NCBI GenBank assembly: GCA_964596735.1
Contig: CAZQVF010000001.1
Span: 74,135-138,134 of the forward strand
Direction: 5' to 3'
DNA length: 64,000 nt
DNA from: an uncultured Gammaproteobacteria bacterium
Lineage (GTDB): Bacteria > Patescibacteriota > Patescibacteriia > UBA2591 > UBA6264
Shown here: positions 25,708-44,470 of the stretch, in pieces
Layout of the letters: the number at the start of each line of letters is the position of its first letter
Numbering within the stretch: position 1 is the first letter of the stretch
Position numbers and translations under genes: made by a program
Notes under the pieces: model-generated
What the model was told of the DNA's origin: nothing
Database searches by the model: none
What the model saw: the letters and a program-made list of their open reading frames with translations, nothing else

Positions 25708-26391
25708 ATGATTAAATTTGTTAATGTTACTAAACGTTACTCAGCTGATGTTTTTGCCTTACGTCAGGTCGGTTTTCATATTAGATCCAAGGAATTTGTT
25801 TCTATAGTTGGTCAGTCAGGGGCAGGCAAGAGTACTGTTCTTAAACTATTGACCGCAGAGGAAAGACCCACCTCGGGTAAAATTGTTATTGGTGGTTGGG
25901 ACATCACAGACATTAAACCAAAAGAAGTCCCTGCTTTACGAAGACAAATTGGTGTAGTTTTTCAAGATTTTAAATTATTAGAAAAAAAGACAGTGGCAGA
26001 AAATGTCGCCTTTGCATTAGAGGTGATTAATACTCAAAGAAAAAAAATAAAGCCGGCCGTTAATCAGGTTTTAAAGATTGTTGGCTTGGAAAATAGAATA
26101 AATTATTTTCCCCAACAACTTTCAGCTGGTGAAGCGCAAAGAGTAGTAGTTGCCAGAGCCCTGGTTCCCCGACCTAAAATATTGATAGCCGACGAGCCAA
26201 CAGGCAATCTTGACCCAATTACCACCAGAGACATTGTTGAGTTGCTAGATAAGATTAATGAATACGGGACCACTGTCCTTTTGGTTACTCATAATCGAGA
26301 GATAGTTAATTTTTTAAGAAAAAGAGTAATCACTCTTGACCAAGGAATTATCATCGGCGATCAAATGAATGAAGGGCGTTATGTTATATAA
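25708..26391 (+). CDS. ftsE: ABC-type ATPase, FtsE-like
   Basis: MIKFVNVTKRY...GQSGAGKST Walker A, LSAGEAQRV signature, ILIADEPTGNLD Walker B; no adjacent ftsX permease. Confidence 0.55.
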   Translation: MIKFVNVTKRYSADVFALRQVGFHIRSKEFVSIVGQSGAGKSTVLKLLTAEERPTSGKIVIGGWDITDIKPKEVPALRRQIGVVFQDFKLLEKKTVAENVAFALEVINTQRKKIKPAVNQVLKIVGLENRINYFPQQLSAGEAQRVVVARALVPRPKILIADEPTGNLDPITTRDIVELLDKINEYGTTVLLVTHNREIVNFLRKRVITLDQGIIIGDQMNEGRYVI

Positions 26392-26782
26392 GATTTTAGA
26401 ACATTCAGCTGATTTTAAAATTCAGGCAAGAGCAAAGACTTTGCCTGATCTTTTTTCCAATTTTCTTAAAGCAATAGCTGAATTTTGTCAGCCAGAAATT
26501 GATCAAGCATCACCTTTAATTAGTCATCAAATTCAAATCAAAACAAATAATTTAGAATCTTTATTAATAGATTTTTTATCAGAAGTTATTTATTTAATGG
26601 ATGTGAACAAAGAAGTTTATACTCAGGCTGACTTGGTGATTAAAGACAAAGAGTTGAAAGGAGAAATCAAGGGGCAGAAAGTTAAAAGATTTCAAACTGA
26701 GATTAAGGCAGCCACTTGGCATGATTTAGAAATTAAAAAAATTAATAATCAATGGCAAGCCATTGTTTTATTTGATGTTTAA
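26369..26782 (+). CDS. archease (RtcB activator)
   Basis: N-terminal YKILEHSADFKIQA (EHTAD-type archease signature); immediately upstream of and overlapping rtcB. Confidence 0.7.
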   Translation: MKGVMLYKILEHSADFKIQARAKTLPDLFSNFLKAIAEFCQPEIDQASPLISHQIQIKTNNLESLLIDFLSEVIYLMDVNKEVYTQADLVIKDKELKGEIKGQKVKRFQTEIKAATWHDLEIKKINNQWQAIVLFDV

Positions 26783-28235
26783 ATATATGTTAAATAAACA
26801 AGACCTAAAAAAAATAAATGATTATCTCTATGAGATTCCTAAATCTTTTCGGGCTGATATGCGAGTGCCATGTCGAGTTTACGCTGATGAAAAAATATTG
26901 GAACAGATCCTTAAAGACCGATCTTTAGAACAATTAGTTAATGTGGCCACTTTGCCAGGAATTGTTAGATACGCTTTAGCTATGCCGGATTGTCATGAGG
27001 GATATGCTAGTCCTATTGGTGGGGTAGCCGCTATTAATGTTGAAAATGGCATTGTTTCTCCAGGAATGCAAGGATATGATATCAATTGCGGCATGAAATT
27101 ATTAAAATCTAATTTTTTACAGAAAGACATTAAACCTTATTTAGAAAGTTTAGCTCTTGAAATTCAAAAACAAGTTCCTTCCGGGCTTGGTCAAGGAAGA
27201 CAGACCAAATTAGATATCGCCAGCATAGATAAAATTTTACAACAAGGAGCTCAAATATTAGTTGAACAGGGTTATGGTGAAAAACAAGACATTGAAAATT
27301 GTGAAGCAAACGGAAGATTAGACTGGGCTGATGATTCAGCTGTTTCTTTTCGGGCTAAAAATCGTGGCCGAAGCCAAGTCGGAACCCTCGGCTCAGGGAA
27401 TCATTTCTTAGAAATTCAAAAAGTTGAGGAAATTTTTGACGAAAAAGTAGCCCAAGCTTTTGGGCTATTTAAAGATCAGGTTATTCTAATGATTCACTGC
27501 GGTTCGCGTGGTTTAGGACATCAGATTTGCAGCGATTATTTAAAGGAATTTATTCCTTTAATGGAGAATAAGTATAAGATAAAGACACCTGATAAAGAGT
27601 TTGCCTGCGTTCCTTTTAAGTCTTCAGAAGGACAAAGAGCTTTAGCCGCTTCTGCCTGTGCGGCTAATTATGCCTGGGCCAACAGGCAGATGATAACTCA
27701 CTTTATTAGAAAAGCATGGAAAACTGTTTTAGGAAAACAAGCCTCTGATCTTGTTTGTCTTTATGATGTCGCTCATAATATTATTAAAAAGGAGAAATAT
27801 GTTATTGACGGCAGAGAAATTGAAGTAGCTGTTCATCGTAAAGGAGCGACTCGAGCATTTCCTCCAAATCATCCTGAACTTCCTCCTGTCTACCATCAGG
27901 TTGGCCAACCTGTTCTTATTCCCGGAAGCATGGGCACAGCTTCTTACATTTTAGCGGGGACAGAAAAAGGCAAGGAGAGTTTTTATTCTGTTAATCACGG
28001 AGCAGGCAGGTCAATGTCTCGCCACGCAGCGATCAGAAGCATTCGAGGAGATGATGTGGTAAGGAAATTAAAGCAAAAAGGAATTTTGGTCAAATGTCGG
28101 TCAATGAGAGGTATTGCCGAGGAAGCCCCCATGGCTTATAAAGATGTTGATCAAGTAGTTAATATTGTTGATCAGGCAGGTTTGGCCAAGAAAGTGGTTA
28201 GGTTAGTACCCTTGGCCGTAATCAAGGGTGAATAA
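26763..28235 (+). CDS. rtcB: RNA-splicing ligase RtcB
   Basis: LPGIV..ALAMPDCHEGYASPIGGVAA, QGYDINCGMKLL, GSGNHFLEIQ, NHGAGRSMSR metal and active-site motifs. Confidence 0.9.
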   Translation: MFYLMFKYMLNKQDLKKINDYLYEIPKSFRADMRVPCRVYADEKILEQILKDRSLEQLVNVATLPGIVRYALAMPDCHEGYASPIGGVAAINVENGIVSPGMQGYDINCGMKLLKSNFLQKDIKPYLESLALEIQKQVPSGLGQGRQTKLDIASIDKILQQGAQILVEQGYGEKQDIENCEANGRLDWADDSAVSFRAKNRGRSQVGTLGSGNHFLEIQKVEEIFDEKVAQAFGLFKDQVILMIHCGSRGLGHQICSDYLKEFIPLMENKYKIKTPDKEFACVPFKSSEGQRALAASACAANYAWANRQMITHFIRKAWKTVLGKQASDLVCLYDVAHNIIKKEKYVIDGREIEVAVHRKGATRAFPPNHPELPPVYHQVGQPVLIPGSMGTASYILAGTEKGKESFYSVNHGAGRSMSRHAAIRSIRGDDVVRKLKQKGILVKCRSMRGIAEEAPMAYKDVDQVVNIVDQAGLAKKVVRLVPLAVIKGE

Positions 28236-28363: not shown

Positions 28364-28621
28364 ATGGCCGAAGAAAAACAAATTGGTAAAATTACTCATT
28401 ATTTTGGCAAAATAGGAGTAGGCGTTTTAGAACTTTCTAAGGGATTAAAAGTAGGAGAAACAATTAGAATTGTTGGTGGTGACAGAGATTTTACCCAAGA
28501 AGTTAGTTCAATGCAGATTGAACATGAAAATATTGAAGCAGCAAAAAAGGGAGAGGCTATTGGCTTAAAACTGGATGAATTAGCTAAACCAGGAGATCTT
28601 GTTTATAAGGTAGTAGAATAA
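28364..28621 (+). CDS. hypothetical small protein (possibly a beta-barrel, EF-Tu domain-2-like)
   Basis: 85-aa ORF with GKIGVGVLEL...GETIRIVGG pattern; preceded by an AT-rich region containing the conserved element. Confidence 0.4.
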   Translation: MAEEKQIGKITHYFGKIGVGVLELSKGLKVGETIRIVGGDRDFTQEVSSMQIEHENIEAAKKGEAIGLKLDELAKPGDLVYKVVE

Positions 28622-28674
28622 ATTTTTATTAAAAATAGATTCTTTTTTTGGAGGAATTGTTTAGTTGTGTTTAA

Positions 28675-28896
28675 ATGAAAGAGAAAATTTCAGATAAGAT
28701 TTTAATTTCTAAACAAAAGCTGGTAATTATCGGACTATTGATTATTGTTTTCAACCCCTTACCAGCCGGTTTGATTTATAGTTTTCTTCTTTGGCGGTTA
28801 CCAGCCACTAAAAAAGACGGCAAATTAATGATGATTTTTTCATTGATTTGGGGGGCGATTTCTCTAGCTTTGGTTCAAAGATATATTGCCTATTAA
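28675..28896 (+). CDS. hypothetical small membrane protein
   Basis: Two hydrophobic helices; 73 aa. Confidence 0.35.
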   Translation: MKEKISDKILISKQKLVIIGLLIIVFNPLPAGLIYSFLLWRLPATKKDGKLMMIFSLIWGAISLALVQRYIAY

Positions 28897-28944
28897 ATTC
28901 CGCTTAAAATTAAAGGAAACGGCTTAACAGGGCCGAATTTTTTA

Positions 28945-28973
28945 TTTGACAAAACCAAAAAAATCTGCTATAC
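28945..28973 (+). promoter_or_regulatory. sigma70-type promoter (TTGACA-N17-TATACT)
   Basis: Exact TTGACA, a 17-nt spacer, then TATACT, about 50 nt upstream of the 29023 ATG; AAGGAG SD 7 nt before that ATG. Confidence 0.6.
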
Positions 28974-29022
28974 TATTTTTAATTAAGATAAATAATCATT
29001 AAAGATTAGAAAAGGAGTTATC

Positions 29023-30471
29023 ATGAGGAATAATAGAGAAACAATTCCGGAGGCGAGTGAGAAGCCTGAAATTACTGGCCGGTATTCTACTGTTACAGAA
29101 TGGAGAGAGATCCTTACAAAATGGTATGCTGGTGAGGTAGTTAAGGGATATGATCGCTATGGCCATCCTAAATTAGCCGAACGTGAGAGAAAAGTAGCTG
29201 AATTAGTAGGCACAGACGTCCTGCTCTATAACTGCGGCATGGCAGCAATAGTTGAAGCTTTGGAAAGTCATCATTTGACCCAGAACGATGTCCTGTTGTA
29301 TAGTCCTGATGTTTATGGTCAGTCAAAGGATTTTATTGAAAATGAACTGAAATCCCGGGGAATAAAATGCATTCCCTTTAACAGCGGTGACCCTGACGAG
29401 GTTAAACGTTTAATTGCTCAGCATCGTCCCAAGGTGATTTTTGCTGAAACAGTTGGTAATGCGCCTGGGATGCCAGTACTTGACGTAGATGCGCTTTTTA
29501 AACAGGTAGAACAAACCAATGAAAAATACCAACAAGAAGCAACCCTATCCAAGGTTTTAGAAAGACAGTTAATCCGTCGTCCCTGGATCCGTAATTGGCT
29601 GGATTTAAAGCCAGGTGAAAAACCAAATCAAGCACAAGGAGAAAAGCTCTCTGCTTTGGTTCCAGAGTTTGAAGCAACGGCTCGAAAAATTGATCAAGCC
29701 CACGACCTTTTACCTCTACGGGATTTACTCAAATCTTTAGGTAAAAAGGGGATAGACTTTGGTCAGGAAATGGATCTACGGAGTAAAACCCTTGAACTTA
29801 AGTGGCTTTTAGATTCTGCCTGGTTGGCCAAGAGAGAGGTTCCGATTACCTTAATCTTAGACAACACCTTACCAACGCCCTCAGGGTTTGATTTGGCTGA
29901 AAAGCTCAAGCAAACCAAAACACCAGTTTTGGCTGTAGAAAGTGGGACCAAGCTCTTTGCTTTGGACTCAGGAACACTCGGTGTTCTTTACAGTAATTCA
30001 TCTGACAAGATGTTAGAATTAAAGGTTAGGCGGGCCGTAACAGGGTCTTACTTGCCAGCGGCAGTAGAAGACTTACTGCCTGAAAGAACTAAGTCAGAAT
30101 TTGATGTTCGCAACAAGCAAACCCTGAAGAACACCAGATTATTGGCTCAAAGTTTTTCCAGAATAGTTGGCAAAGCTGGTGTTAAAGCGGTTTCACATCC
30201 TAACCTGCCGGGTCATTCAAATTACGAGTACACGGACAAACACATGCCCGAGGGTGGTTCAGCTATCTTTTACCTGGATTGTGAAAATAGCTGGGAGCTG
30301 GCAGCTAAACTGGAAGCAAAATTAGGGAACAGAATCGAGTATGGCGGGTCCTTTGGACTGCCTAAAACCCGTTTACTTCCGCTTGATGATAACCTCTTCC
30401 GCATTGCTGGAGGAACAGAATCTGCTGAGGACATGGAGGAAATCCTGGCAGTAATTGAATCAATAGAATAA
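29023..30471 (+). CDS. divergent PLP-dependent enzyme, Cys/Met-metabolism (cystathionine gamma-synthase/O-acetylhomoserine sulfhydrylase) fold family
   Basis: N-terminal pattern ...TVTEW..GYDRYGHP..AERERKVAELVG.DVLLYNCGMAAIVEAL.S......DVLLYSPDVYGQSKDF......GIKCIPF...D...V...I....KVIFAETVGNAPGMPVLDVDAL resembles that family. It has a long central insertion and a diverged lysine region; visibly higher GC than its neighbours. Confidence 0.55.
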   Translation: MRNNRETIPEASEKPEITGRYSTVTEWREILTKWYAGEVVKGYDRYGHPKLAERERKVAELVGTDVLLYNCGMAAIVEALESHHLTQNDVLLYSPDVYGQSKDFIENELKSRGIKCIPFNSGDPDEVKRLIAQHRPKVIFAETVGNAPGMPVLDVDALFKQVEQTNEKYQQEATLSKVLERQLIRRPWIRNWLDLKPGEKPNQAQGEKLSALVPEFEATARKIDQAHDLLPLRDLLKSLGKKGIDFGQEMDLRSKTLELKWLLDSAWLAKREVPITLILDNTLPTPSGFDLAEKLKQTKTPVLAVESGTKLFALDSGTLGVLYSNSSDKMLELKVRRAVTGSYLPAAVEDLLPERTKSEFDVRNKQTLKNTRLLAQSFSRIVGKAGVKAVSHPNLPGHSNYEYTDKHMPEGGSAIFYLDCENSWELAAKLEAKLGNRIEYGGSFGLPKTRLLPLDDNLFRIAGGTESAEDMEEILAVIESIE

Positions 30472-30480
30472 TAACGAAAA

Positions 30481-30530
30481 GGCCGAATCTCTTAAATATA
30501 ATAAAAGGGATTCGGCCATTCTCTTTTTTT
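30481..30530 (+). terminator. putative rho-independent terminator
   Basis: GGCCGAATC...GATTCGGCC inverted repeat followed by CATTCTCTTTTTTTTATT; the loop is long. Confidence 0.45.
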
Positions 30531-30590
30531 TATTATAAAGTTGATAAAATCAAATATTTTTGATAGAATTATTATAGAATATATAATTGT

Positions 30591-31490
30591 ATGAAAACAA
30601 AAGATTTTAACCGAAAAAAAGAAGACTATTACAAAGGAGAGGCAGAAAAATGGGATCTTAGAGAGAGCTCATCTCGTCCCAGTCCAGAGAATGTTAAGCA
30701 TTATAATCAATTGGTGAAATCAGTTCTAGGCAATAAGAAAAATCCTAGAATTGTTGTTTTAGGATCAACGCCAGAAATCAGAGAGATGCTCTATAAATAC
30801 TATTTTCTTAATAAAGCAAAGATTATTTGTTTAGAACTTTTGCCAGCCATGTATTATGGAATGTCTAATTTAGTTAAACATAAATCTCCAAATGAAAAAT
30901 TTGTTCAAAGTGATTGGTTAAAAATGCCCTTTAAAAAAAACAGTATTGATATTTTTATTGGAGATTTAATCACGGGTAACATTTATAACAAGAAAGATAG
31001 AGAAAAATTATTAAGATTGATTAAAAAATGCTTAAAAAAGAATGGAGTTTTTCTTGAAAGACATCTTTACATAACTCCAAGGGTAAAAATAAAAGATGTT
31101 AAAAAACATTTATTTAGTTTTGTTCCAAAGATTATAAATGAAAAAATAAGCATTAATGCTGCGGCTACTTCTTTTTTGGCTAATTTGGTTGTTGCAAGTT
31201 GGTATCAGAACATAGAGAGGAAGCTTTCTATGATTTATTTTGAAAAAGAAATTAGAAAATTAAAAAAATATTTTCAAAAAAAGAATTTATCCTCTCAAGA
31301 CAGAATTGCCAAAGCCATATTTGATCACTTTCAGCTTTTAGGAGGAAAAAAAAGATATTGGACTTATGGGACCAAGGAACAGGAAGAAAAAGAATTAAGA
31401 GAATATTTTAAAATAGAAAAGAGATTATACGCTAAAGACTTTTATTCTGCGTCTAATGTGCCAATTTATTTATTAAGACCTAAAAAGTGA
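30591..31490 (+). CDS. array paralog 1: class I SAM-MTase-like protein (LGATPE family)
   Basis: Shares the family blocks: N-terminal W..W....RPS..E, RIVVLGSTPEIREML (motif I position), CLELLPAMYYGM (post-I), SDWLKMPFKKNSIDIFIGD (motif II-like), CLKKNGVFL (motif III-like), C-terminal IYLLRPKK. Confidence 0.8.
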   Translation: MKTKDFNRKKEDYYKGEAEKWDLRESSSRPSPENVKHYNQLVKSVLGNKKNPRIVVLGSTPEIREMLYKYYFLNKAKIICLELLPAMYYGMSNLVKHKSPNEKFVQSDWLKMPFKKNSIDIFIGDLITGNIYNKKDREKLLRLIKKCLKKNGVFLERHLYITPRVKIKDVKKHLFSFVPKIINEKISINAAATSFLANLVVASWYQNIERKLSMIYFEKEIRKLKKYFQKKNLSSQDRIAKAIFDHFQLLGGKKRYWTYGTKEQEEKELREYFKIEKRLYAKDFYSASNVPIYLLRPKK

Positions 31491-31491
31491 T

Positions 31492-32319
31492 ATGAAATCA
31501 TGGGATAATATTAAAAAATCAGAATGGCGAGGATTTGCTGAAAAATGGAGAGCTCTTAATCCCCCCTATAAACCCTCGAGAGAAAGAATAGATATTTATC
31601 ATTATTTAATTAAAAAATATGTTAAAGGCAATAAAGCTTTAGTTTTAGGGGCAACGCCTGAGATTAGAGATCTTTTAGCCAAACTAAAATTCAAAGTAAC
31701 TCTATTAGATATTAGCTTGCCAATGGTTAGGGCAATGACTTTTTTAAAAAAGACCAGGAATAAAGAAAAAATTGTTATTGGCAATTGGCTTAAGGCTAGG
31801 TTTAATGAAAAGTATGACCTAGTTATTGGTGATTCAGTGATTAATAATCTTTTGCCTGGTCAATACACTAAGTTTTTTAAACAGGTACAGAGATTTTTAA
31901 AAAATGACGGTATTTTTATTTCTCAAGGCGTTTTTTTATCAAAACCAATAAGTAAGCATAGAATTTCTATTAAACAGATTATTAATAAGGCAAAGAATAG
32001 GCCTGATTATTATAGAATTTATTCAAATAAGGCTTATGACTATTTAACATGGTCGGTTTCTCAGACTAAAAAGCATTTAGCTAATTTTGGAACATTGAAT
32101 GAGATCTGGCGCCAAAAATTGGAAAATGGACAGATAAGCAAAAAAGAATTTAAATTATTAGATTTTGATCTTCCTGAAGACTTGACAATCTCGTTTTTTA
32201 CCAAAAAAGAATTTGAAAGAACCCTTTGTAAATTTTGGCAAATACTTGATCAAACTCATGAAAAAAGCCATCGGGTTCACAAAGATTTTTATCGCATTTA
32301 TGTTTTAAAAAAGAAATAA
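31492..32319 (+). CDS. array paralog 2 (LGATPE MTase-like)
   Basis: ALVLGATPEIRDLLAK, TLLDISLPMVRAM, GNWLKARFNEKYDLVIGDSVINNL, FLKNDGIFIS, ...IYVLKKK; starts 1 nt after the previous stop. Confidence 0.85.
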   Translation: MKSWDNIKKSEWRGFAEKWRALNPPYKPSRERIDIYHYLIKKYVKGNKALVLGATPEIRDLLAKLKFKVTLLDISLPMVRAMTFLKKTRNKEKIVIGNWLKARFNEKYDLVIGDSVINNLLPGQYTKFFKQVQRFLKNDGIFISQGVFLSKPISKHRISIKQIINKAKNRPDYYRIYSNKAYDYLTWSVSQTKKHLANFGTLNEIWRQKLENGQISKKEFKLLDFDLPEDLTISFFTKKEFERTLCKFWQILDQTHEKSHRVHKDFYRIYVLKKK

Positions 32320-32320
32320 G

Positions 32321-33169
32321 ATGACAGTAAAAAATCCGAAAACAGAAACATGGAGAAAATTTATTGAAGGCTGGTCTAAATTGACCAGTCCGGGCCGACC
32401 AACAAAAAAAGAAATCATTATTTATAAAGAATTCGGATTGGCAAAACTAAAGAAAAAAGGGGCAAAAACTTTAGTCCTTGGCGCCACTCCTGAAATAAGG
32501 GATATGTTGGCAAAATATAATAATCTACAGGTTCATTTAATTGATATTAATATTGATAATTGTTTAGCAATGAGCGAGTTGATGGAAAATAAAACAGCAA
32601 AAGATGAAGAAACATGGATGAAGGCTAATTGGCTAAATAATCCTTTACCAGAAAATTATTTTGATTTAATTTACGGAGATTTTGTTGTTTGCAATGTTCC
32701 CTTTGAAAAGCAGAACAAATTTTTAGCCAATATTAAAGGATGGTTAAAAAAAGAAGGGTTGTTTATTACCCGTTGTACAAGCATAACCTCAGAATACAAA
32801 GAATTATCTTTAAGGGAATTTTGTCAGTTATTCAAAGATAAGCCGGTTAATCTAAAGACAATTAATCATTTTTGGGAATTAGGCGTTTACTTGGGAGAAA
32901 TTGCTGAAGAAAACAGGTTTAGTCCGGGCGTTTTTTATAAACGCTTAAGAAATTATCTTAGAAAACATCCTAATAAAAACATAGATAAAATATTAGAGGC
33001 TGGGGGATTTCTTTATCCCTTAGAATGGACCTGGTCTCTTTGTCCCAAAAAAAGAATTGAAAATTTGCTTTCAAAACATTTTGTGACTAAAAAAAGAGAA
33101 TTTGACACTAAAATGAATTTTATTTATCCGAATTTTTATCCTATTTATTGCTTGAAACCTAAAAAATAA
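32321..33169 (+). CDS. array paralog 3 (LGATPE MTase-like)
   Basis: TLVLGATPEIRDMLAKY, HLIDINIDNCLAM, ANWLNNPLPENYFDLIYGDFVVCNV, WLKKEGLFITR, IYCLKPKK. Confidence 0.85.
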   Translation: MTVKNPKTETWRKFIEGWSKLTSPGRPTKKEIIIYKEFGLAKLKKKGAKTLVLGATPEIRDMLAKYNNLQVHLIDINIDNCLAMSELMENKTAKDEETWMKANWLNNPLPENYFDLIYGDFVVCNVPFEKQNKFLANIKGWLKKEGLFITRCTSITSEYKELSLREFCQLFKDKPVNLKTINHFWELGVYLGEIAEENRFSPGVFYKRLRNYLRKHPNKNIDKILEAGGFLYPLEWTWSLCPKKRIENLLSKHFVTKKREFDTKMNFIYPNFYPIYCLKPKK

Positions 33170-33170
33170 T

Positions 33171-34040
33171 ATGGAAAAAAGAACAAAAATGTGGCAAAAG
33201 ATTACCCGAGATTATTGTAAGTTTGTTATTCCAAATCGGCCCAGTCTTGACGATACAAGGAATTATGCCATAGCCATTAATCAAGTATTAAAAAATAAAA
33301 AAGAACCCAAAATATTAGTGATGGGCTCAACCCCAGAGATACGCAGATTTTTGTTTACCTACACCTGTCTTTTTAATGCTCAAGTGTATTGCGTTGATTT
33401 TAGTCCAAATATGTATAAGTCAATGACAGATTTTATAAACAAAGCAGAGTTAAAAGAAAAATATATCAAGGCAAGCTGGTTAAAAACAGGGCTTAAAGAC
33501 AATTTTTTTGATTTAGCAGTGGGCGATGAAGTTATTTGTAATATTGAACCCAAAAAGCATAAAGGGCTTTTTCAAGAAACATCAAGAATCCTTAAAAAAG
33601 ACGGCTATTGGGTCACTCGACATAACATGTATCTTCCGAATCAAGCCAAACCCAAAACAATTATTTTAAACATTGTTAAAGATTTAAAACAAAAGAAATA
33701 CAGTTTTCAAGAAGCAATTCATTATCTTTTCATCACTTTATTTTACAGTCTGGTTCAAACAAACAAACAGCATCGACTTAATCAAGCAGAACAGATGAAA
33801 GAAATGAGAAAGGTATATAAAACCTTAAAAAATGATTTAGATAAAAGAGTATTAAAAGAATTGATTAAACATTTTCAAGGAAATTGGCAATCTACCTATA
33901 GTTATCATTGGTATGTATTGTCTAAAAAAGACAGTGAAAAAGAATTAAGAGAATTTTTTACTATTAAAAAGATTCTAACTCCTCGCGATTATATTACAGC
34001 CAAGAATTCACCGATTTATTTATTGAAAAATAGAAAATAA
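33171..34040 (+). CDS. array paralog 4 (LGATPE MTase-like)
   Basis: ILVMGSTPEIRRFL, YCVDFSPNMYKSM, ASWLKTGLKDNFFDLAVGDEVICNI, ILKKDGYWVTR, IYLLKNRK. Confidence 0.85.
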   Translation: MEKRTKMWQKITRDYCKFVIPNRPSLDDTRNYAIAINQVLKNKKEPKILVMGSTPEIRRFLFTYTCLFNAQVYCVDFSPNMYKSMTDFINKAELKEKYIKASWLKTGLKDNFFDLAVGDEVICNIEPKKHKGLFQETSRILKKDGYWVTRHNMYLPNQAKPKTIILNIVKDLKQKKYSFQEAIHYLFITLFYSLVQTNKQHRLNQAEQMKEMRKVYKTLKNDLDKRVLKELIKHFQGNWQSTYSYHWYVLSKKDSEKELREFFTIKKILTPRDYITAKNSPIYLLKNRK

Positions 34041-34057
34041 TAAGATATTTTAATTAT

Positions 34058-34902
34058 ATGGTAATTACAAAAAAACGAAAAAACGTTCAAGCCTGGTCAA
34101 AACAAATGGCACAAAATAGAAAAAAAGGAGACCACCAACTGCTCCTAGTATAAGCGAGCAGAAGATTTATGAAAAATTTTTAAAACAAGCTTTAAAAAAT
34201 AAAGAAAACCCTAAGGTTTTAATTTTAGGAGTTACCCCAGAGCTTCGCAATATTGCCTTAAAAAATAATTGCCAGGTTGTGTCTGTTGACATTAGTCGGG
34301 AAATAATAAAAGCAATGAAACCCTCAATAAAATATAAAGGGTTAAAAAGAGAAAAGATTATTAATGCTAACTGGCTTGCTGTTTCTTTTCCAAAGAATAG
34401 TTTTGATTTGGTAATGGGAGATGCACCCTTAACCAATCTTCTTTCTATTCATGATCTTAGAAAATTATTATTTAAAGTCCGGAGAGTATTAAAGCCAAGG
34501 GGTTTTTTCTTAATAAGAGAACTCATTCATTTATCAAATAAAAAAGCTCCATTTAAAAAAATAGTTTCTGATTATCGGAAGAATAAGATAAAATGGGAAG
34601 ATTTTTTTATGGACCTTAGATTTTATACGTTTTTTAATAAAGCCTATAATCCAAAAAATAACCTTCTTTCCGCTGATAAGATTTTTCAGGAAATTGAAAA
34701 AAAATATAAGCAAGGCGAGCTGACAAAGAAAGAATATCAAAGAATTATGATTCTTGAAAATCGAATGAAGAATTTAGTTTTATTTAAAGAAAAATTTATG
34801 AAATTAATCAAAGAAAATTTTTCCATTATTTCTATTAAAACAGATAAAGAATTTAAATTCTGTCAATATTTACCAATTTATTTGTTGAAAAATAGAAAGT
34901 AA
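34058..34902 (+). pseudogene. array paralog 5, frameshifted (or -1 frameshift-dependent) copy
   Basis: The N-terminus (MVITKKRKNVQAWSKQMAQN) reads in one frame to a TAA at 34151. The family-conserved continuation (RRPPTAPSISEQKIYEKF...VLILGVTPELRNIAL...) lies in the -1 frame, beginning inside a GAAAAAAAGG A7 run at 34120-34126. The track only reports the GTG-started C-terminal 207-aa piece. Confidence 0.7.
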
Positions 34903-34903
34903 T

Positions 34904-35749
34904 ATGGCTAAGAAAAAATTTAGTATAAAAATGAAACAGAGCTGGTTTCAAATTGCTGAGAAATGGAGAGAATATAATTATCCAGTTAAACCTTCTCCCA
35001 TGGAGACAAGATTTTTTGAAAAAGAAATAAAGGATTTATTAAAAAGGGAAAAGAGAATTAAAGCTTTAGTTTTAGGGGCAACCCCTGAATTTAGAGATTT
35101 ATTGGCTAAGCATAAAATAGACACTGTTTTAATTGATAATAATTTAACCTCTGTCAAGGCAATGACTTTTTTAATGAAAAGAAAGACTAAAAAAGAAAAA
35201 ATAGTGGTTGGGGATTGGTTAAAGATGCCTTTTAAAGAAAATACCTTTGATATAGTTTTCAGTGATTCTGCTCAGGACAATATTAAGTTTAAAAATTTCA
35301 ATAAGTTTTTTAATAATGTTTACCAAATTTTAAAGCCAGAGGGATATTGGTTTTTTGCTGCGGTTAATGTGGAAAAAAATCAAAGTATTTCTTTAAAAAA
35401 ATACATTAAAAAATACAAAGAAAAACCAAAGATTTTTAAAGATTTTAGAAATTTTGCTTCTTATTTTTTTCGAGTCGGTCGCGGTCCAGATTTTTATAAA
35501 CCCAAAACCAGAAGTTTTGATTTTGCTAAAATTGATCAAAGGGTAAAGGCCCTTATTGAGGAAGGTAAAATTTCTTCTAAAGCCCTTAAAGATATTTGTT
35601 TTCATTTAAATTATGAACAGGTTTTAATTGGTCAAACCGATTTTAAGAAAATGTTAAAAAAGAATTTTAATATTTTTAAAGAAATGAAAAAAGATAAACA
35701 TCCGGGCATGGAAATAAAGTGGGCGGCAATTTTAAAACCAAAGAAATAA
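34904..35749 (+). CDS. array paralog 6 (LGATPE MTase-like)
   Basis: ALVLGATPEFRDLLAKH, VLIDNNLTSVKAM, GDWLKMPFKENTFDIVFSDSAQDNI, ILKPEGYWFFA, ...AILKPKK. Confidence 0.85.
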   Translation: MAKKKFSIKMKQSWFQIAEKWREYNYPVKPSPMETRFFEKEIKDLLKREKRIKALVLGATPEFRDLLAKHKIDTVLIDNNLTSVKAMTFLMKRKTKKEKIVVGDWLKMPFKENTFDIVFSDSAQDNIKFKNFNKFFNNVYQILKPEGYWFFAAVNVEKNQSISLKKYIKKYKEKPKIFKDFRNFASYFFRVGRGPDFYKPKTRSFDFAKIDQRVKALIEEGKISSKALKDICFHLNYEQVLIGQTDFKKMLKKNFNIFKEMKKDKHPGMEIKWAAILKPKK

Positions 35750-35750
35750 T

Positions 35751-36638
35751 ATGGCCAAAAAGAAATTAGACAATCCTATTTGGGACGCAAAACAACAAAA
35801 ATGGTGGGAGTTTTTTTGGGGAGGAGTTAAAGCTCCTTGGCGACCGACAAAAAAGGAAATTAAATTTTGGGAAGGGAAAATTCAACAAGCTTTTAAAGAA
35901 AAAGATTTTTTACGTGTTTTAATTTTAGGGGCTACTCCAGAATTTAGAGACATGCTGACCAGGTATAAAGATAAAACAGAAGTGACCCTATTAGACGCAA
36001 ATCCGGCAGTTAAAGCAGCCATGGATAAGCTAAGGAAAAAGAGAAATTCTAAGGAAAGAATAGTTTGGGGTGATTGGCTAAAGATGCCCTTACCGTCTAA
36101 TTATTTTGACATTGTTTTTAGTGATGAAGTATTTGAGAATATTGCTTTGGAAAATCATGACAAGTTACATCAAAATATTAAACGGGTTTTGAAAAAAGAT
36201 GGTTATTTTTTAGATGGTCGGATTTGTTTAGAAGACTTTTTTAAACATCCCTTACATCTAGAACAAGTTTTAAGAAAATATAAAAGGGAGCCAAGGTTTT
36301 TCCACGATTCTTATAACCGGCTTTGGTATTTGTATCGTTTATGCCCTTCAGAAAAGCTCTTTTATAGTAAAAAAGAGCAAGCAGTTTTAATGAATAAAAA
36401 GGCAGCAGAAAAAGTATTTAATAGGGCTAAAAAAATAGGCATAAAAAACCCAAAATATTTAAATTGGGATCCAAGATTAGATTATAAGGAGCTTGATTAC
36501 AAGGAGATAGATTTAGCTAGTTTAAAAAGAGTAAAGTCAATGATTGGAAAATATTTTAAAATAGAAAAAACTTATCAGGATTTATTTCATCCAGTAATGA
36601 AAATAAAATATAATTTTGTCTGCCGTCCTAAAGAATAA
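35751..36638 (+). CDS. array paralog 7 (LGATPE MTase-like)
   Basis: VLILGATPEFRDMLTRY, TLLDANPAVKAAM, GDWLKMPLPSNYFDIVFSDEVFENI, VLKKDGYFLDG, ...FVCRPKE. Confidence 0.85.
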   Translation: MAKKKLDNPIWDAKQQKWWEFFWGGVKAPWRPTKKEIKFWEGKIQQAFKEKDFLRVLILGATPEFRDMLTRYKDKTEVTLLDANPAVKAAMDKLRKKRNSKERIVWGDWLKMPLPSNYFDIVFSDEVFENIALENHDKLHQNIKRVLKKDGYFLDGRICLEDFFKHPLHLEQVLRKYKREPRFFHDSYNRLWYLYRLCPSEKLFYSKKEQAVLMNKKAAEKVFNRAKKIGIKNPKYLNWDPRLDYKELDYKEIDLASLKRVKSMIGKYFKIEKTYQDLFHPVMKIKYNFVCRPKE

Positions 36639-36641
36639 AAT

Positions 36642-37499
36642 ATGGCAAAAAAAGGTTTAATTAATGGAAAAGAATGGGTGGATTATTTAAAATTTTGGTC
36701 GATTATGGCTCCGCCGGCCCGGCCCTCTAGTTTTGATATAAAGATTTGGGAGACATATATTAAAAAAATATTAAGACAAAAAAGAGATATTAAAGCTTTA
36801 GTTTTTGGCGCCACTCCTGAAATCCGCGATTTATTAGCTAAATATAAGATTTTCACTACTCTTTTAGATGTTAATCCAGCCATGATTAAAGGGTTGATGA
36901 AATTCATGAAGTATAAGAAGCAACGAAACGAGAAAGTAATTATTGATAATTGGCTAAAAATTAGAGAATTGTTTTCTGAAAATTCTTTTGATATAGTGAT
37001 GGGCCATGATTTTTTTAATAATATTCCTTGGAGTTCTCATAATAAATTAGCCAGCAGCATTAAATGGGTTTTAAAAAAAGATGGCTATGGATTAATTGTT
37101 TCTCCAATTTTAAGAAAAACAAAAAATTTGTCTAGCGAGCATTTTGTTACGCTATATAAAAAAAATCCAAAATACTTTAAAGAATTTTGTCATCGTTGGT
37201 ATGTAGTAGATGTTTTAAAAAAATTAGATTATAACAAAAGAACCAGACAGTTTTTTATAAAAAAAATAAAAGAACGTTTAATCAAAGAAGCAGAAAAACA
37301 AGGTTTGTCAGAAAAGGATATTAATCAGATGTGGGTTTTTAAAACATTTAATATAGCTGACAATTATATTGGAGTTCACCCGCCCTTAAAAGATTTATTA
37401 AATGTTTTTAAGAAATATTTTAAAATTGAGAAAATGTCTTATTGGTCAAAACAGGGGAACAAATCCCATTTTAATTTTGTTTTAAGACCTAAGAAATAA
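36642..37499 (+). CDS. array paralog 8 (LGATPE MTase-like)
   Basis: ALVFGATPEIRDLLAKY, TLLDVNPAMIKGLM, DNWLKIRELFSENSFDIVMGHDFFNNI, VLKKDGYGLIV, ...FVLRPKK. Confidence 0.85.
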   Translation: MAKKGLINGKEWVDYLKFWSIMAPPARPSSFDIKIWETYIKKILRQKRDIKALVFGATPEIRDLLAKYKIFTTLLDVNPAMIKGLMKFMKYKKQRNEKVIIDNWLKIRELFSENSFDIVMGHDFFNNIPWSSHNKLASSIKWVLKKDGYGLIVSPILRKTKNLSSEHFVTLYKKNPKYFKEFCHRWYVVDVLKKLDYNKRTRQFFIKKIKERLIKEAEKQGLSEKDINQMWVFKTFNIADNYIGVHPPLKDLLNVFKKYFKIEKMSYWSKQGNKSHFNFVLRPKK

Positions 37500-37502
37500 A
37501 AT

Positions 37503-38378
37503 ATGGCAAAACATAAGATAGACAATCCAGTTTGGCAAAAAAAAGAAGAATGGTGGTATAATGTTTGGAAAAAAGTTGAGCCACCATTTCATCCTTCAAA
37601 AGGGGAGGTGATGTTTTATGAAAAGGCAGTGAAAAAAACATTGAAACGAAAAAATCCAAAGGTTCTTGTTTTAGGAGCAACACCAGAAATCCGTGATATG
37701 TTAGCTAAATACAAAAAATTAGACGTTTATATTATAGACGCTGATGTTCCAGTTTATCGAGCCATGACCCGGTTAATGAAAAGAAAGAACAAACGAGAAA
37801 AATTAGTAGTTGGAGATTGGCTAAAAATGCCATTTAAAAAAGATACCTTTGATCTGAGTTTGAGCCACGGAGCTTTTTCTGTAATTAGTCTAAAAAATCA
37901 TGAAAGATTTTATAACAATATTAAAAGAGTAATTAAAAAAGATGGTTATATTGTAATGAGTCGGGTGAATGTCGAACCCTTTTTAAAAGAGCCAATTAGT
38001 TTTAAACAGATTATTGATAGATATAAAGAGGATCCAAAATATTTTAAAAGCCTTCAAAACAGAGTTTATATTTTATACCAATTGACCAGCCGACCAGGCT
38101 TATATAATTACAAAACCCAGAGCATTAAATATCATGTCATGGCTAGAAAATTAAGAGATTATGCTAGAAAACAAGGACTTTCAGAAAAGCAAATAAAAGG
38201 TCTGTATTTTACCCCAGATTTTGATGTGAATCTTAAAATTGATGACACAGAAATACAAACCCTTAAAAGACTAAAGACAATGATTAAAAAACATTTTATA
38301 ATTAAAGAAATATATCAGGATGATTATCACCCGGTGGCCAAAATATTTATTGATTTCTTATGTCAAAAAAGAAAATAG
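37503..38378 (+). CDS. array paralog 9 (LGATPE MTase-like); recent duplicate of paralog 10
   Basis: VLVLGATPEIRDMLAKY, YIIDADVPVYRAM, GDWLKMPFKKDTFDLSLSHGAFSVI, VIKKDGYIVMS, ...IFIDFLCQKRK; ends with the same ...FIDFLCQKRK tail as paralog 10. Confidence 0.85.
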   Translation: MAKHKIDNPVWQKKEEWWYNVWKKVEPPFHPSKGEVMFYEKAVKKTLKRKNPKVLVLGATPEIRDMLAKYKKLDVYIIDADVPVYRAMTRLMKRKNKREKLVVGDWLKMPFKKDTFDLSLSHGAFSVISLKNHERFYNNIKRVIKKDGYIVMSRVNVEPFLKEPISFKQIIDRYKEDPKYFKSLQNRVYILYQLTSRPGLYNYKTQSIKYHVMARKLRDYARKQGLSEKQIKGLYFTPDFDVNLKIDDTEIQTLKRLKTMIKKHFIIKEIYQDDYHPVAKIFIDFLCQKRK

Positions 38379-39238
38379 ACAACCCAATTTGGCAGAAAAA
38401 AGAAGAATGGTGGTATAATGTTTGGAAAAAAGTTGAACCGCCCTTTTGTCCTTCAAAGGGGCAGATTAAGTTTTATGAAAAGATAATAAAGAACAAAATA
38501 CTTAAACGTAAAAATCCCAGAATTCTTGTCTTAGGAGTCACACCGCAGATTCGTGATTTATTGGCTAAATACAAGAAACTAGATGTTTATTTAATTGATA
38601 TTGATGTGCCGGTTTATCGAGCGATGACTAGATTAGTGAAGAAAAAAAATCCTAGAGAAAAATTAATCGTCGGTGATTGGTTAAAAATGCCTTTTGAAAA
38701 AAATTATTTTGATTTAATCATGGCTCATAGTTCGTTTTCTGTCATTAGTTTAAAACACCATAAGTTGTTTTATCAGAATATTAAAAGGGTTCTTAAAAAA
38801 GATGGTTATGTTTTAATGAGTCGGGGAATATTGGAATTTGCTTTTAAAGACCCGATTAATTTTAAACAATTTTTTAATAAATACAAAAAAGACCCTAAAT
38901 ATTTTAAAAATTTTCAAAACAGAACATATATTTTATACCGATTAATCAATCGACCAGGAATCTATGACAGAAGGACACAGGGATTTAAATGGCATGTTAT
39001 GGCCAAAGGGTTGATGGATTATGGAAAAAGACAAGGATTTTCAGAAAAACAAATAAAAAGTCTTTATTTTCTTCCTGAGATAGGGCCAGAAGCAGTTTAT
39101 ACAGATACTGATATTGAAAGTGCAAAAAAAGTTAAATCAATGATTAGAAAACATTTTATAATCAAACAAATTCATCAGGATAATTATCACCCCATTGCTA
39201 AAATATTTATTGATTTTTTATGTCAAAAAAGAAAATAA
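38360..39238 (+). CDS. array paralog 10 (LGATPE MTase-like)
   Basis: About 70% identical by eye to paralog 9 along its whole length. The ATG start sits inside the last codons of paralog 9 (ATGTCAAAAAAGAAAATAG overlap). Confidence 0.85.
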   Translation: MSKKKIDNPIWQKKEEWWYNVWKKVEPPFCPSKGQIKFYEKIIKNKILKRKNPRILVLGVTPQIRDLLAKYKKLDVYLIDIDVPVYRAMTRLVKKKNPREKLIVGDWLKMPFEKNYFDLIMAHSSFSVISLKHHKLFYQNIKRVLKKDGYVLMSRGILEFAFKDPINFKQFFNKYKKDPKYFKNFQNRTYILYRLINRPGIYDRRTQGFKWHVMAKGLMDYGKRQGFSEKQIKSLYFLPEIGPEAVYTDTDIESAKKVKSMIRKHFIIKQIHQDNYHPIAKIFIDFLCQKRK

Positions 39239-40071
39239 GTGTAAAAGATTATGTTGAATTTTGGAAAAATCTTTATCCAGAGATAAAGCCGCTTCCTTCA
39301 ACAATTCAGTTTTGGGAAGATAAAATTAAAGAGATATTAAAGAAGAATAAGAATCCTCAGGCCTTGGTTTTAGGAGTGACCCCAGAAATCAGAGATTTAT
39401 TGACTAAGCATAAAATTAAGACAACCTGTTTAGACCTTAATCCAATAATGATTAAGGCAATGGAATCATTAGTTAAAAGGAAAAATCCTAAAGAAAGAAT
39501 TATTAAGGGTGATTGGCTAAAAATGCCATTTAAAAAAGATACTTTTGATTTTATTATCAGTGATTGCCCCCAAGATAATATTCCCTATAAGAGTTGGAAC
39601 AAATTTTTTCAAAGTGTTTTTCAGGTTTTAAAACCAAGCGGATATTGGTTATTAGGAGCAACTCTTTTTAAAGGTTTTAAAGAGGGAATTAATTTAAGTC
39701 AATTCATAGAAATTTATCGAAAAAATCCCAAGGTATTTACAAATTCGAAGCAAAAGTTTTATTATCTTCTTAAACTATCTAGTTGTCGTGATTTTAATAA
39801 TCGCAAGACCAAAACAGTTGATTGGATAAAGGTAGATAAAGAATTAGAAAAACTTTATAAAAAAGGATTAATCAACAGAAAAGAGTTAAATGATTTATCT
39901 ATATCTACAAAAAGTATTAAGTTAAGTTTGGCCTGTAAATGGCCCTGGGTTACCATGAATGAGTTTTGTAGAATTTTGAAAAAGAATCATTTTTATGTGA
40001 TAGGTTATAGAGAAGATGACATTTTTCCAGCTGGTTGTTTTCGCCAGGCTTTTATTTTAAAAAAACATTGA
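39220..40071 (+). CDS. array paralog 11 (LGATPE MTase-like)
   Basis: ALVLGVTPEIRDLLTKH, TCLDLNPIMIKAM, GDWLKMPFKKDTFDFIISDCPQDNI, VLKPSGYWLLGA; the start overlaps the paralog 10 stop with the same ATGTCAAAAAAGAAAATAAG junction. Confidence 0.85.
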   Translation: MSKKKISVKDYVEFWKNLYPEIKPLPSTIQFWEDKIKEILKKNKNPQALVLGVTPEIRDLLTKHKIKTTCLDLNPIMIKAMESLVKRKNPKERIIKGDWLKMPFKKDTFDFIISDCPQDNIPYKSWNKFFQSVFQVLKPSGYWLLGATLFKGFKEGINLSQFIEIYRKNPKVFTNSKQKFYYLLKLSSCRDFNNRKTKTVDWIKVDKELEKLYKKGLINRKELNDLSISTKSIKLSLACKWPWVTMNEFCRILKKNHFYVIGYREDDIFPAGCFRQAFILKKH

Positions 40072-40110
40072 AAATAAAGAAAAAGCCGTTTTGTAGCGGT
40101 TTGAAAATTT

Positions 40111-40965: not shown

Positions 40966-41019
40966 GAACCCTTCGCTACGCTCAGGAACCTTGAAATTAA
41001 AACTTTATTTTATAAATAT
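40964..41019 (+). promoter_or_regulatory. conserved CTTGAAATTAAA promoter-like element (internal to the array)
   Basis: AAGAACCCTTCGCTACGCTCAGGAACCTTGAAATTAAAACTTTATTTTATAAAT in the 74-nt gap between paralogs 12 and 13; same architecture as the copies at 1879, 4839 and 19449. Confidence 0.55.
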
Positions 41020-41039
41020 TAAGGTAGTTTAATTATAAT

Positions 41040-41891: not shown

Positions 41892-41892
41892 T

Positions 41893-42744: not shown

Positions 42745-42745
42745 C

Positions 42746-43621: not shown

Positions 43622-43622
43622 T

Positions 43623-44465: not shown

Positions 44466-44470
44466 AGTCT

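Follow-up and report, generated by a model that had tools for sequence, protein, structure and literature searches.

A divergent Cys/Met-metabolism PLP enzyme partnered with arrays of methyltransferase-fold genes in Patescibacteria

In the operons yrrT-mtnN-mccA-mccB and ubiG-mccB-mccA, which serve the conversion of methionine to cysteine, a putative S-adenosylmethionine (SAM)-dependent methyltransferase is encoded together with a cystathionine γ-lyase (PMC2566862). A second point of reference is provided by the AZE synthases, which have the MT1 fold and a GxxxG loop, carry out a non-methylating chemistry that releases 5′-methylthioadenosine (MTA), and have homologues in the candidate phyla radiation (CPR, or Patescibacteria) (PMC11794875). 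Here, we describe a locus from a CPR bacterium, located on a 64,000-nucleotide stretch of DNA (the window; contig CAZQVF010000001.1, positions 74,135–138,134), in which a single gene for a pyridoxal 5′-phosphate (PLP)-dependent enzyme of the Cys/Met-metabolism family PF01053 (the PLP gene) stands ahead of 19 methyltransferase-fold domains. Positions given below are those of the window, and related loci are referred to by our own numbers (L001 and so on). Literature searches returned no description of this PLP clade, of its insertion, or of a PLP-plus-array module in CPR. As a gene association in CPR bacteria, the pairing has not been described before, and its enzyme represents a branch of a well-known family that is both new and strongly divergent.

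Family placement and active site of the PLP enzyme

The open reading frame (ORF) at 29023–30471 (plus strand) encodes a protein of 482 aa, referred to here as the long form, which matched PF01053 at E = 3.8e-23 (82.1 bits; cut-off, 27), an insertion dividing the match into two stretches. Similarity to cystathionine γ-synthase (CGS) and O-acetylhomoserine (OAH) sulfhydrylase enzymes was strongest at residues 43–165 in both the Pfam and the structure–sequence alignments, in agreement with a first-pass annotation, made from the DNA sequence alone, that had noticed this likeness in the N-terminal third. The long insertion that it described was also found, at residues ~166–270. The same annotation had considered the lysine region to be poorly conserved, which was not borne out: the sequence S307-G-T-K310 aligns to the S-x-T-K motif (SGTK or SATK) of 4l0o, among the solved CGS and methionine γ-lyase (MGL) structures, and of 7bqw, and it is invariant in 29 relatives. 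The checks it had proposed, placement among the fold-type-I PLP enzymes and location of the Schiff-base lysine, led to PF01053 and to Lys310, the codon of which lies at 29950–29952.

The remainder of the active site is similarly preserved. The sequence ILD280NT aligns to IVDNT, and ES307GTK310 to HSGTK or HSATK, of the solved CGS and MGL structures, which identifies Asp280 (codon 29860–29862), in the DNT motif, as the residue that binds the pyridine nitrogen of PLP. Residues Y43, R45, G72, M73, Y98, E142, N146, D280, N281, S307, T309, K310 and R460 are invariant in the 29 full-length relatives. By homology to the solved structures, Asp280 would be the N1 binder and Tyr98 the ring stacker, while Gly72-Met73, together with Tyr43 and Arg45 from the neighbouring subunit, would bind the phosphate. 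The arginine of the LxRxxxG motif, which holds the α-carboxylate of the substrate, is also present: the profile sequence ‘llRiAgG’ was aligned to ‘liRLAvG’ of 9qm6, and R460 is invariant. Since this arginine and the PLP-site residues are all kept, the substrate is presumably an α-amino acid. A pseudoenzyme is ruled out by the invariance of all the catalytic residues.

The AlphaFold2 model of the protein had a mean predicted local distance difference test (pLDDT) score of 92.7 and a predicted template modelling (TM) score of 0.88. Foldseek searches with this model gave a probability of 1.0, target-normalised TM scores of 0.65–0.77 and 13–19% identity, with about equal matches to MGL, CGS, cystathionine γ-lyase (CGL), OAH and O-succinylhomoserine (OSH) sulfhydrylases, Fub7 and a promiscuous γ-synthase, and together model and matches support a three-domain fold-type-I architecture. 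None of the NCBIfam equivalog cut-offs was reached. The best model, PRK07582, scored 70 bits, or 82 once the insertion was removed, its cut-off being 440, and all others were lower, so that the curated models for MetB (CGS), MetC (cystathionine β-lyase, CBL), MetY/MetZ, MGL and CGL/MccB stayed at ≤82 bits against cut-offs of ≥440, with the insertion in or out. The ranking of best models was the same for the core without its insertion and for the short CPR forms described below. Sequence and model thus agree on what is predicted to be a catalytically competent fold-type-I γ-family (PF01053) enzyme, and the enzyme belongs to a CPR-specific, very divergent PF01053 clade that fits no curated subfamily. 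The specificity-determining residue equivalent to Glu339 of human CGL could be mapped only ambiguously, because HMMER places SFG on the canonical S-M-T-H rather than on S-L-G-G and about 10 residues are deleted at this point, and it was not used. The PLP protein had no match to the PADLOC defence models, and the array paralogs had only a generic Rossmann-domain match to mad2; membership in a defence system was therefore rejected.

The insertion (residues ~166–270, 105 aa; encoded by 29518–29832) has no counterpart in the canonical enzymes or in short CPR relatives. It is predicted to be entirely helical, with six helices over residues 155–269 at pLDDT >90. An insertion of 77–109 aa was found in all 29 long-form members, with a mean pairwise identity of 39%, compared to 50–54% for the core, and with the conserved motifs N166-x-K-Y-Q, F216-E, P-L-R-x-L and A-W-L-A-K-R-E. 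A phmmer search with residues 158–274 against 1.84 billion representative proteins returned only family members and one spurious tandem-repeat protein; no homologue outside the family was seen, which rules out a known or mobile domain. To judge from these comparisons, the insertion is a lineage-specific invention.

The nearest relatives of the long-form catalytic core are short CPR Cys/Met enzymes of ~380 aa (P0041, P0046), to which it is 30–36% identical. The short forms have the odd motifs of the clade (ETVGN, ILDNTLPT, VESGTKFYA, SHPNLPxHPN, SFGFxxTR and Gln100), and some insertion-less members also head methyltransferase arrays. They differ in lacking the 105-aa insertion and in their N-terminus, which reads VPxF... 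in place of ITGxYxxVxEWK. Short forms that are not linked to arrays (L008, L014–16) formed a separate clade in a rough neighbour-joining tree, and the gene for one short form, P0041, is translationally coupled to a PALP gene resembling that of cystathionine β-synthase (CBS).

Genetic partnership with methyltransferase-fold arrays

The PLP gene is followed by an array of tandem paralogs with the class-I SAM-methyltransferase fold (30591–46427, plus strand), comprising 15 full-length single genes, one N-truncated gene and one fused double gene. A nineteenth methyltransferase-fold domain is encoded at 47447–48289 (plus strand), after a NIF3-like gene, and brings the total downstream of the PLP gene to 19. 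The fused double paralog is a single 556-aa ORF (44757–46427, plus strand), the second half of which has separate-gene orthologues in L001, L005 and L090. The N-truncated paralog (region 34120–34902, plus strand; the listed ORF, 34279–34902, starts at the GTG at 34279) matches hidden Markov model positions 23–287 and may be either a decaying copy or the result of a mis-called start.

The paralogs are only 20–31% identical to the one that adjoins the PLP gene (MT-1) and 30–44% identical to their best-matching paralog, apart from one pair at 68%. Each of them has one-to-one orthologues elsewhere, at 55–75% identity, and L001, L009, L010, L013 and L090 share one and the same orthologue in the position adjoining the PLP gene. 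Because the paralogs are diverged, yet individually conserved across genomes, the array is best understood as an old battery of distinct enzymes that has undergone no recent amplification. The paralogs have the MT1 Rossmann-type fold with a nearly invariant acidic residue, D82, at the end of β2, where the residue expected to hold the ribose is located in class-I methyltransferases. Motif I reads G-x-T-P-E-x-R in all of them where GxGxG is canonical. They exceed the thresholds of the Pfam models Methyltransf_11, Methyltransf_25 and Methyltransf_31, they match genuine methyltransferases best in both sequence and fold, and they also give weak matches to spermidine synthases. The fold neighbours of MT-1 gave no indication of its acceptor class.

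A scan of metagenomes seeded with the methyltransferase sequences yielded 79 loci. A PF01053 gene was present in 20 of the 22 evaluable arrays of ≥3 copies and at none of six true singletons (Fisher p = 7e-5, an optimistic value, since the metagenome loci are not phylogenetically independent); two more singletons on long contigs were also without a PLP gene. Conversely, array paralogs were found at 0 of 72 ordinary Cys/Met-enzyme loci. There is never more than one PLP gene per locus, while the arrays carry 2–19 paralogs. The PLP gene is usually the first gene of the array and on the same strand, often with a hairpin between it and the array. It lies directly 5′ of the paralogs in L001, L003, L005, L006, L007, L009, L010, L013 and L090, whereas in L011 the methyltransferase paralogs (two genes) lie 5′ of it, and at least five different upstream contexts were seen for array-heading PLP genes.

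The array partners include insertion-less short forms as well as a third lineage of 423–432 aa. All of these are PF01053 proteins, and no array-linked PLP gene, not even a very divergent one, departs from the catalytic residue set. An initial assumption that the linkage is limited to the long form was overturned by the methyltransferase-seeded scan, which found insertion-less and other PF01053 lineages linked as well. Since forms without the insertion are partnered too, the insertion is not needed for the partnership, of which it appears to be a later elaboration; the partnership, as read from these gene neighbourhoods, is one between Cys/Met-type PLP chemistry and the arrays, rather than one of the long form as such. 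The recurrence of the pairing across deeply diverged CPR lineages implies that it is under selection, and gene linkage marks the PLP gene as a conserved genetic partner of diverged methyltransferase-fold arrays.

Besides the dependence among the metagenome loci, the exceptions have to be set against this reading: the linkage is broken by two arrays that have no PLP gene (L113 and L118) and by one long-form PLP gene without an array (L012). This gene, at L012:10001–11365, is the sole long-form PLP gene with no array within 10 kb; its neighbours are a sigma-70 gene on one side and a Cache/PAS histidine kinase gene on the other, and its product is missing the first ~40 residues. The close relative L011, which keeps two methyltransferase genes, suggests that L012 lost its array recently. 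Weighing these points, we put the probability that the PLP gene encodes an active γ-family enzyme that is functionally tied to the array at roughly 85%.

Transcription signals, base composition and origin

The first-pass annotation had described a promoter, a Shine–Dalgarno sequence and a terminator belonging to the PLP gene alone, and all of these could be located. The promoter (28946–28974, plus strand) is of the sigma-70 type and matches the consensus at 11 of 12 positions, with the −35 element TTGACA at 28946–28951, a 17-nt spacer with a TG extension, and the −10 element TATACT at 28969–28974. Thirteen sites matching at ≥11 of 12 positions occur in the window, compared to 3.1 ± 2.4 expected, and most are found just 5′ of gene starts, which makes this class of promoter credible in this genome; by its sequence, the promoter of the PLP gene would belong to the strongest class. 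The Shine–Dalgarno sequence, AAGGAG (29012–29017), lies 5 nt ahead of the ATG. The PLP gene looks monocistronic, because its promoter is preceded by a terminator-like hairpin with a T-run (28920–28945; hairpin 28920–28935; stem CGGCTTAACAGGGCCG followed by AATTTTTTAT), which closes an upstream unit of two small ORFs. Downstream of the gene there is an intrinsic-terminator-like hairpin (30481–30531) with a 13-bp GC-rich stem at 30481–30517, an 11-nt loop and a run of eight T at 30524–30531, with a predicted folding energy of −24 kcal/mol (z = −5.6 relative to shuffled sequences). A strong hairpin with a T-run was found 3′ of the PLP stop codon in 7 of 10 loci and a weaker one in L005; that of the window has homologues in L009 and L010. 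The head of the array has a second near-consensus promoter (TTGATA, 16-nt spacer, TATAAT; 30560–30587, plus strand). Expression of the PLP gene thus seems to be uncoupled from that of the array and, as we infer from these signals, is probably higher. No riboswitch or other cis-regulatory RNA was detected ahead of the PLP gene or the array, either in an Rfam scan of the whole window at gathering thresholds or in a scan of 28600–30700 at E ≤ 1.

The first-pass annotation had noted the high GC content of the PLP gene and had suggested, as one of two alternatives, a horizontally acquired and functionally shifted enzyme. The compositional difference was confirmed: its GC content is 43.7%, compared to a mean of 33.6% (standard deviation (SD), 4.1) for the 62 ORFs of the window, and its GC content at third codon positions (GC3) is 0.383, compared to 0.270 (SD 0.046), the highest among the 44 plus-strand ORFs of ≥150 aa. 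Its codon bias B of 0.354 (mean 0.248, SD 0.059) ranks fourth of 45, behind three much shorter ORFs, and the gene is a moderate codon-usage outlier. The GC content at first and second codon positions, on the other hand, is comparable to that of other conserved enzymes of the window, and the unusual AT-richness of the neighbouring array (26–35% GC) accounts for much of the contrast that is seen. The only ORF that is richer in GC (11519–12082, minus strand; 48% GC, GC3 0.495) has weak matches of coiled-coil type only; it directly follows a 1537-aa ORF (6817–11430), the counterpart of which in the related locus L095 is without Pfam annotation.

The GC3 value and the codon usage speak for a recent acquisition of the PLP gene from outside CPR; several observations speak against it. 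About 36 long-form homologues were found (39–80% identity), every one of which, where the source was named, was labelled Patescibacteria. The long form occurs in only 5 of 185,579 species-representative genomes. The relatives, close and distant, are all CPR proteins, so that the non-CPR affinities that the annotation had proposed to look for did not emerge, and the insertion is unique to the family. The gene order of L010 is that of the window (FtsE, archease, RtcB, 85-aa ORF, 73-aa ORF, PLP, MT-1 ... NIF3), and L001, L005, L009 and L013 have the PLP gene in the corresponding slot and keep most of this order. The PLP proteins of L010, L001/L005, L009 and L013 are 65%, 57–60%, 66% and 50% identical to that of the window, respectively, and this divergence scales with that of the neighbouring genes (61–82% identity), the PLP identity being consistently somewhat lower. 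Finally, the PLP gene is GC-richer than its own locus in nearly all relatives, and its GC3 is among the top three in 7 of 10 loci. Because the excess is common to the orthologues, it is a trait of the family and no mark of recent transfer; a connection with expression or with amino-acid constraint is conceivable. A recent transfer was therefore rejected as hardly credible, on the grounds of the CPR-only relatives, the identical ranking of best models in the short CPR forms, the synteny and the family-wide GC excess. The other half of the suggestion, a functional shift, is supported by the distance from every curated subfamily cut-off.

Several features of the syntenic region deserve mention in their own right. 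The archease and RtcB RNA-ligase genes (26369–28235, plus strand) lie between FtsE and the small ORFs and are inserted relative to L001 and L005; L010 has the same pair, at 61% and 78% identity. The genomes of L009, L010 and L013, which are GTDB species representatives, are labelled ‘uncultured Gammaproteobacteria’, while their gene content, 34–40% GC and synteny are typical of Patescibacteria, and the labels are probably wrong. The two small ORFs (28364–28896, plus strand) encode an 85-aa protein resembling EF-Tu domain 2 and a 73-aa hydrophobic, possibly membrane-associated protein. They are always found 5′ of the PLP gene in the lineage of the window and are probably not core members of the module, since they are absent in other lineages. 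Near the end of the array, an ORF of ~97 aa (44471–44764, plus strand; …LIKRCGYAELRRKTGEISYVRRLRGYQYPRFHVYI…NLHLDQKAP…H.GEY.GE…) is conserved in the window lineage only. It was seen in 10 loci, with 60–76% identity to L001:15144–15434 and L005:17136–17471; it is not a methyltransferase fragment, and had no match in Pfam or PADLOC.

In nine loci of the window's lineage, the NIF3/DUF34-like gene (46494–47444, plus strand) is always 3′ of the array. The region is followed by a radical-SAM gene (48291–49208, plus strand), and a Memo/AMMECR1 fusion is present in the relatives L001 and L005; these genes look like a separate set of the AmmeMemoRadiSam type. Further downstream, a 1225-aa gene of the phosphoenolpyruvate (PEP)-synthase/PPDK type (52948–56625, plus strand) carries an intein, as indicated by Intein_splicing and LAGLIDADG matches in the identical gene of L094. 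Just past the right end of the window, L094:11978–18408 contains a serine recombinase, a C5 DNA methylase with a Vsr endonuclease and several small unidentified ORFs, and is probably an integrated mobile element beside a sigma-70 gene. In L089, a pair of bAvd and reverse-transcriptase genes of the diversity-generating-retroelement type (L089:18190–19587) is separated by ~8 kb from a singleton methyltransferase-family gene, two genes 5′ of which MetK is encoded; the locus also contains GyrB with an intein.

Possible functions and comparison with known systems

Clues to function come from genes that recur in or near arrays elsewhere. In at least four lineages (L111, L113/L119, L122 and L134), a gene for methylthioadenosine phosphorylase (MTAP) lies inside the array and on its strand, with 59–69% identity between lineages and scores above the cut-offs of NF005876 (332.8 vs. 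306) and TIGR01694 (294 vs. 274.85). An adenine phosphoribosyltransferase (APRT) gene, also above cut-off, lies beside it in L111, L113, L119 and L122, though not in L134, and in L122 and L134 the PLP gene, methyltransferases and MTAP occur in one cluster. Split dikinase-like proteins were represented by PPDK_N proteins in seven loci (ATP-grasp, ~327 aa) and by proteins with a terminal PEP-utiliser mobile domain (~500–560 aa) in 12, with six paralogs in L162; they are weakly similar to PEP synthase, rifamycin phosphotransferase and PigC. The loci with dikinase-like genes by the arrays are L162, L003, L120, L123, L126, L140, L145, L149, L165, L169–L171 and L174. An α/β-hydrolase of ~400 aa recurs in eight array loci. 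None of these genes (MTAP, APRT, dikinase-like, recurrent α/β-hydrolase) is present in the window, nor were genes for methionine or cysteine biosynthesis or the SAM cycle (CBS, MetA/MetX, CysK) seen in the window or in the 10 kb beyond each of its ends. CBS-type PALP (MccA) and MtnN are not among the recurrent neighbours of ~40 array loci, the sole PALP neighbour being beside an unlinked short form, and the PNP_UDP_1 genes that were found are MTAP or uridine-phosphorylase-like, the latter near the window locus.

The first-pass annotation had suggested that the PLP enzyme might supply a sulfur- or amino-acid-derived substrate to the adjacent system. The conserved linkage strongly supports a partnership, in which the enzyme may either supply a substrate or remove or recycle a SAM-derived product. 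A single PLP gene would serve between two and 19 chemically distinct, presumably SAM-using enzymes, and the enzyme would then act on the part that all their reactions have in common. Since there is one PLP gene for many paralogs, and since enzymes that salvage the adenosyl moiety (MTAP and APRT) are found in the same clusters, that part would be the 2-aminobutyrate (homocysteine/aminocarboxypropyl) half of the SAM-derived products. The reaction that we favour is an α,γ-elimination, in which homocysteine from S-adenosylhomocysteine (SAH), or a related γ-thioether, would yield 2-oxobutyrate and ammonia together with a thiol or H2S. Such elimination would clear an inhibitory dead-end product in organisms without methionine synthase, and the strong private promoter and terminator would allow the level of the enzyme to be higher than, and independent of, that of the array. 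A 2-oxoacid:ferredoxin oxidoreductase encoded at 1042–3103 is a candidate consumer of the 2-oxobutyrate, on weak evidence and at a distance of 26 kb from the PLP gene. This homocysteine- or SAH-derived γ-lyase role would parallel that of MccB in the Firmicute operons, and we tentatively assign to it a probability of 35–40%.

Several observations weigh against this role. The type of reaction (γ- or β-elimination, or replacement) is not readable from the sequence, and neither the subfamily models nor the fold matches discriminate. Genes for SAH hydrolase, SAH nucleosidase, LuxS, MetK or CBS were not seen in any array locus or in ~84 kb around the PLP gene, whereas an enzyme that converts SAH to homocysteine would be expected nearby at least sometimes if homocysteine removal were the purpose. 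The embedded salvage enzyme, MTAP, uses MTA, which is left over when an aminocarboxypropyl or aminopropyl group is transferred or when SAM lyases act, and not when a methyl group is transferred. Furthermore, the dikinase-like and α/β-hydrolase genes near the arrays are more suggestive of biosynthesis or modification than of pure housekeeping.

The MTAP genes and the lack of SAH-processing genes in the array loci lend some weight to a chemistry of the four-carbon unit, in which at least some paralogs would be MTA-releasing 3-amino-3-carboxypropyl transferases or SAM cyclases or lyases, or the PLP enzyme itself would use SAM as a γ-electrophile. The PLP enzyme would then make γ-substituted 2-aminobutyrates by γ-replacement or break them by γ-elimination, while MTAP and APRT cleared the MTA. 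Such compounds are the substrate class of the γ-family PLP enzymes, the salvage genes lie inside arrays in at least four lineages with no SAH-processing gene in any array locus, and the paralogs have both the G-x-T-P-E-x-R loop in place of GxGxG and weak matches to spermidine synthases; a GxxxG loop goes along with MTA-releasing chemistry in the MT1-fold AZE synthases, of which CPR homologues are known (PMC11794875). Against it, the paralogs pass the Methyltransf_11/25/31 thresholds and match genuine methyltransferases best, the AZE signature motifs are absent from all 18 paralogs tested, and neither the window nor the majority of array loci encodes MTAP or APRT, enzymes that in CPR could reflect general adenosine or adenine salvage. 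Glycine loops also vary widely among true methyltransferases. We regard this chemistry as the main rival of the γ-lyase role, though as rather unlikely. More doubtful still is its extension to a CPR-specific system in which SAM serves as a four-carbon donor besides or instead of a methyl donor: the paralogs, with many different acceptors, would release MTA as aminocarboxypropyl transferases or SAM lyases, synthesis or cleavage of the γ-substituted 2-aminobutyrates would fall to the PLP enzyme and recycling of the adenine to MTAP and APRT, and the insertion would be a docking or adenosyl-binding element of the long form. In its most radical version, the PLP enzyme would cleave SAH or SAM directly, bypassing SAH hydrolase.

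Two further explanations were considered. The PLP enzyme could be a C–S lyase that frees thiols from S-conjugates of cysteine or homocysteine, which the paralogs then S-methylate in a thiomethyl shunt for the detoxification or modification of host-derived or xenobiotic compounds. The Cys/Met family includes both β- and γ-C–S lyases, the logic of a PLP C–S lyase with an S-methyltransferase is familiar from the lincomycin, gliotoxin and ergothioneine pathways, and the α/β-hydrolase and rifampicin-phosphotransferase-like dikinase genes have a flavour of xenobiotic modification. However, a single lyase would have to provide many different thiols, MTAP and APRT inside the arrays would be left unexplained, and genes for processing glutathione or cysteine conjugates were not seen, which makes this shunt quite improbable. 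Alternatively, the gene could encode an unrelated housekeeping MetB, MetC, MetY or CGL that is next to the array by chance, as might be argued from its Pfam family, from its own promoter and terminator, which make it transcriptionally separable, and from the one short CPR relative that pairs with a CBS-like gene. This is very unlikely in view of the scores of ≤82 bits against equivalog cut-offs of ≥440, the absence of methionine and cysteine biosynthesis genes nearby, and an adjacency that repeats across lineages, flanking contexts and PF01053 sub-lineages (20/22 arrays, compared to 0/6 singletons and 0/72 ordinary loci).

Whichever the reaction, one PLP enzyme and 19 distinct, presumably SAM-using enzymes take up ~19 kb in this organism, which by our own estimate is roughly 2% of a typical CPR genome of ~1 Mb. 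CPR bacteria have tiny genomes and almost no biosynthesis. The pairing is probably central either to the processing or modification of small molecules or to the management of the SAM cycle without methionine synthase in these symbionts. The enzyme adds to a well-studied family a strongly divergent branch with a structural insertion that had no homologue among the proteins searched and, as one soluble protein with all its catalytic residues, offers a concrete and testable point of entry. If the MTA-releasing reading were true, organisms from the least understood third of bacterial diversity would turn out to use SAM in a new type of chemistry.

In comparison with the canonical PF01053 γ-family (CGS, CGL, CBL, MGL and the O-acyl-homoserine sulfhydrylases), the enzyme has the fold and the PLP- and α-carboxylate-binding residues in common. 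It differs in being only 13–19% identical to the solved members, with no subfamily model within a factor of five of its cut-off, in its genomic context, and in the 105-aa helical insertion, which separates the ETxGN strand/helix from the DNT strand. The clade also has Y-x-Q-S for Y-G-G-T/S, SGTKF-A-D for S-x-TKY-x-GHSD, and SFGFxKTR in the C-terminal domain.

The operons yrrT-mtnN-mccA-mccB of B. subtilis and ubiG-mccB-mccA of C. acetobutylicum resemble the present locus in having a methyltransferase gene next to that of a Cys/Met-family lyase, MccB, a cystathionine γ-lyase/homocysteine desulfhydrase on the homocysteine side of the SAM cycle (PMC2566862). Here, however, there are 2–19 diverged paralogs instead of one, no CBS (MccA) or SAH nucleosidase in the cluster, and a PLP gene that comes first and is insulated by a terminator, with no S-box or T-box leader; the PLP enzyme itself is far from MccB (NF005810, ~36–50 bits against a cut-off of 594). 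The AZE synthases (AzeJ/VioH) and the MccD-type aminocarboxypropyl transferases, in turn, combine the class-I fold with a non-canonical glycine loop, as do the array paralogs. An identity of the paralogs as AZE synthases was rejected, since the signature motifs FY (at the N-terminus), PFNxxGN and RxxYYxxC were absent from 18 of 18 tested, and the arrays are also without the context of nonribosomal peptide synthetase or aminoacyl-tRNA-synthetase genes. The likeness to SAM-dependent enzymes that do not methylate and are accompanied by MTA salvage extends to gene content, in that MTA-salvage genes lie inside some of the arrays.

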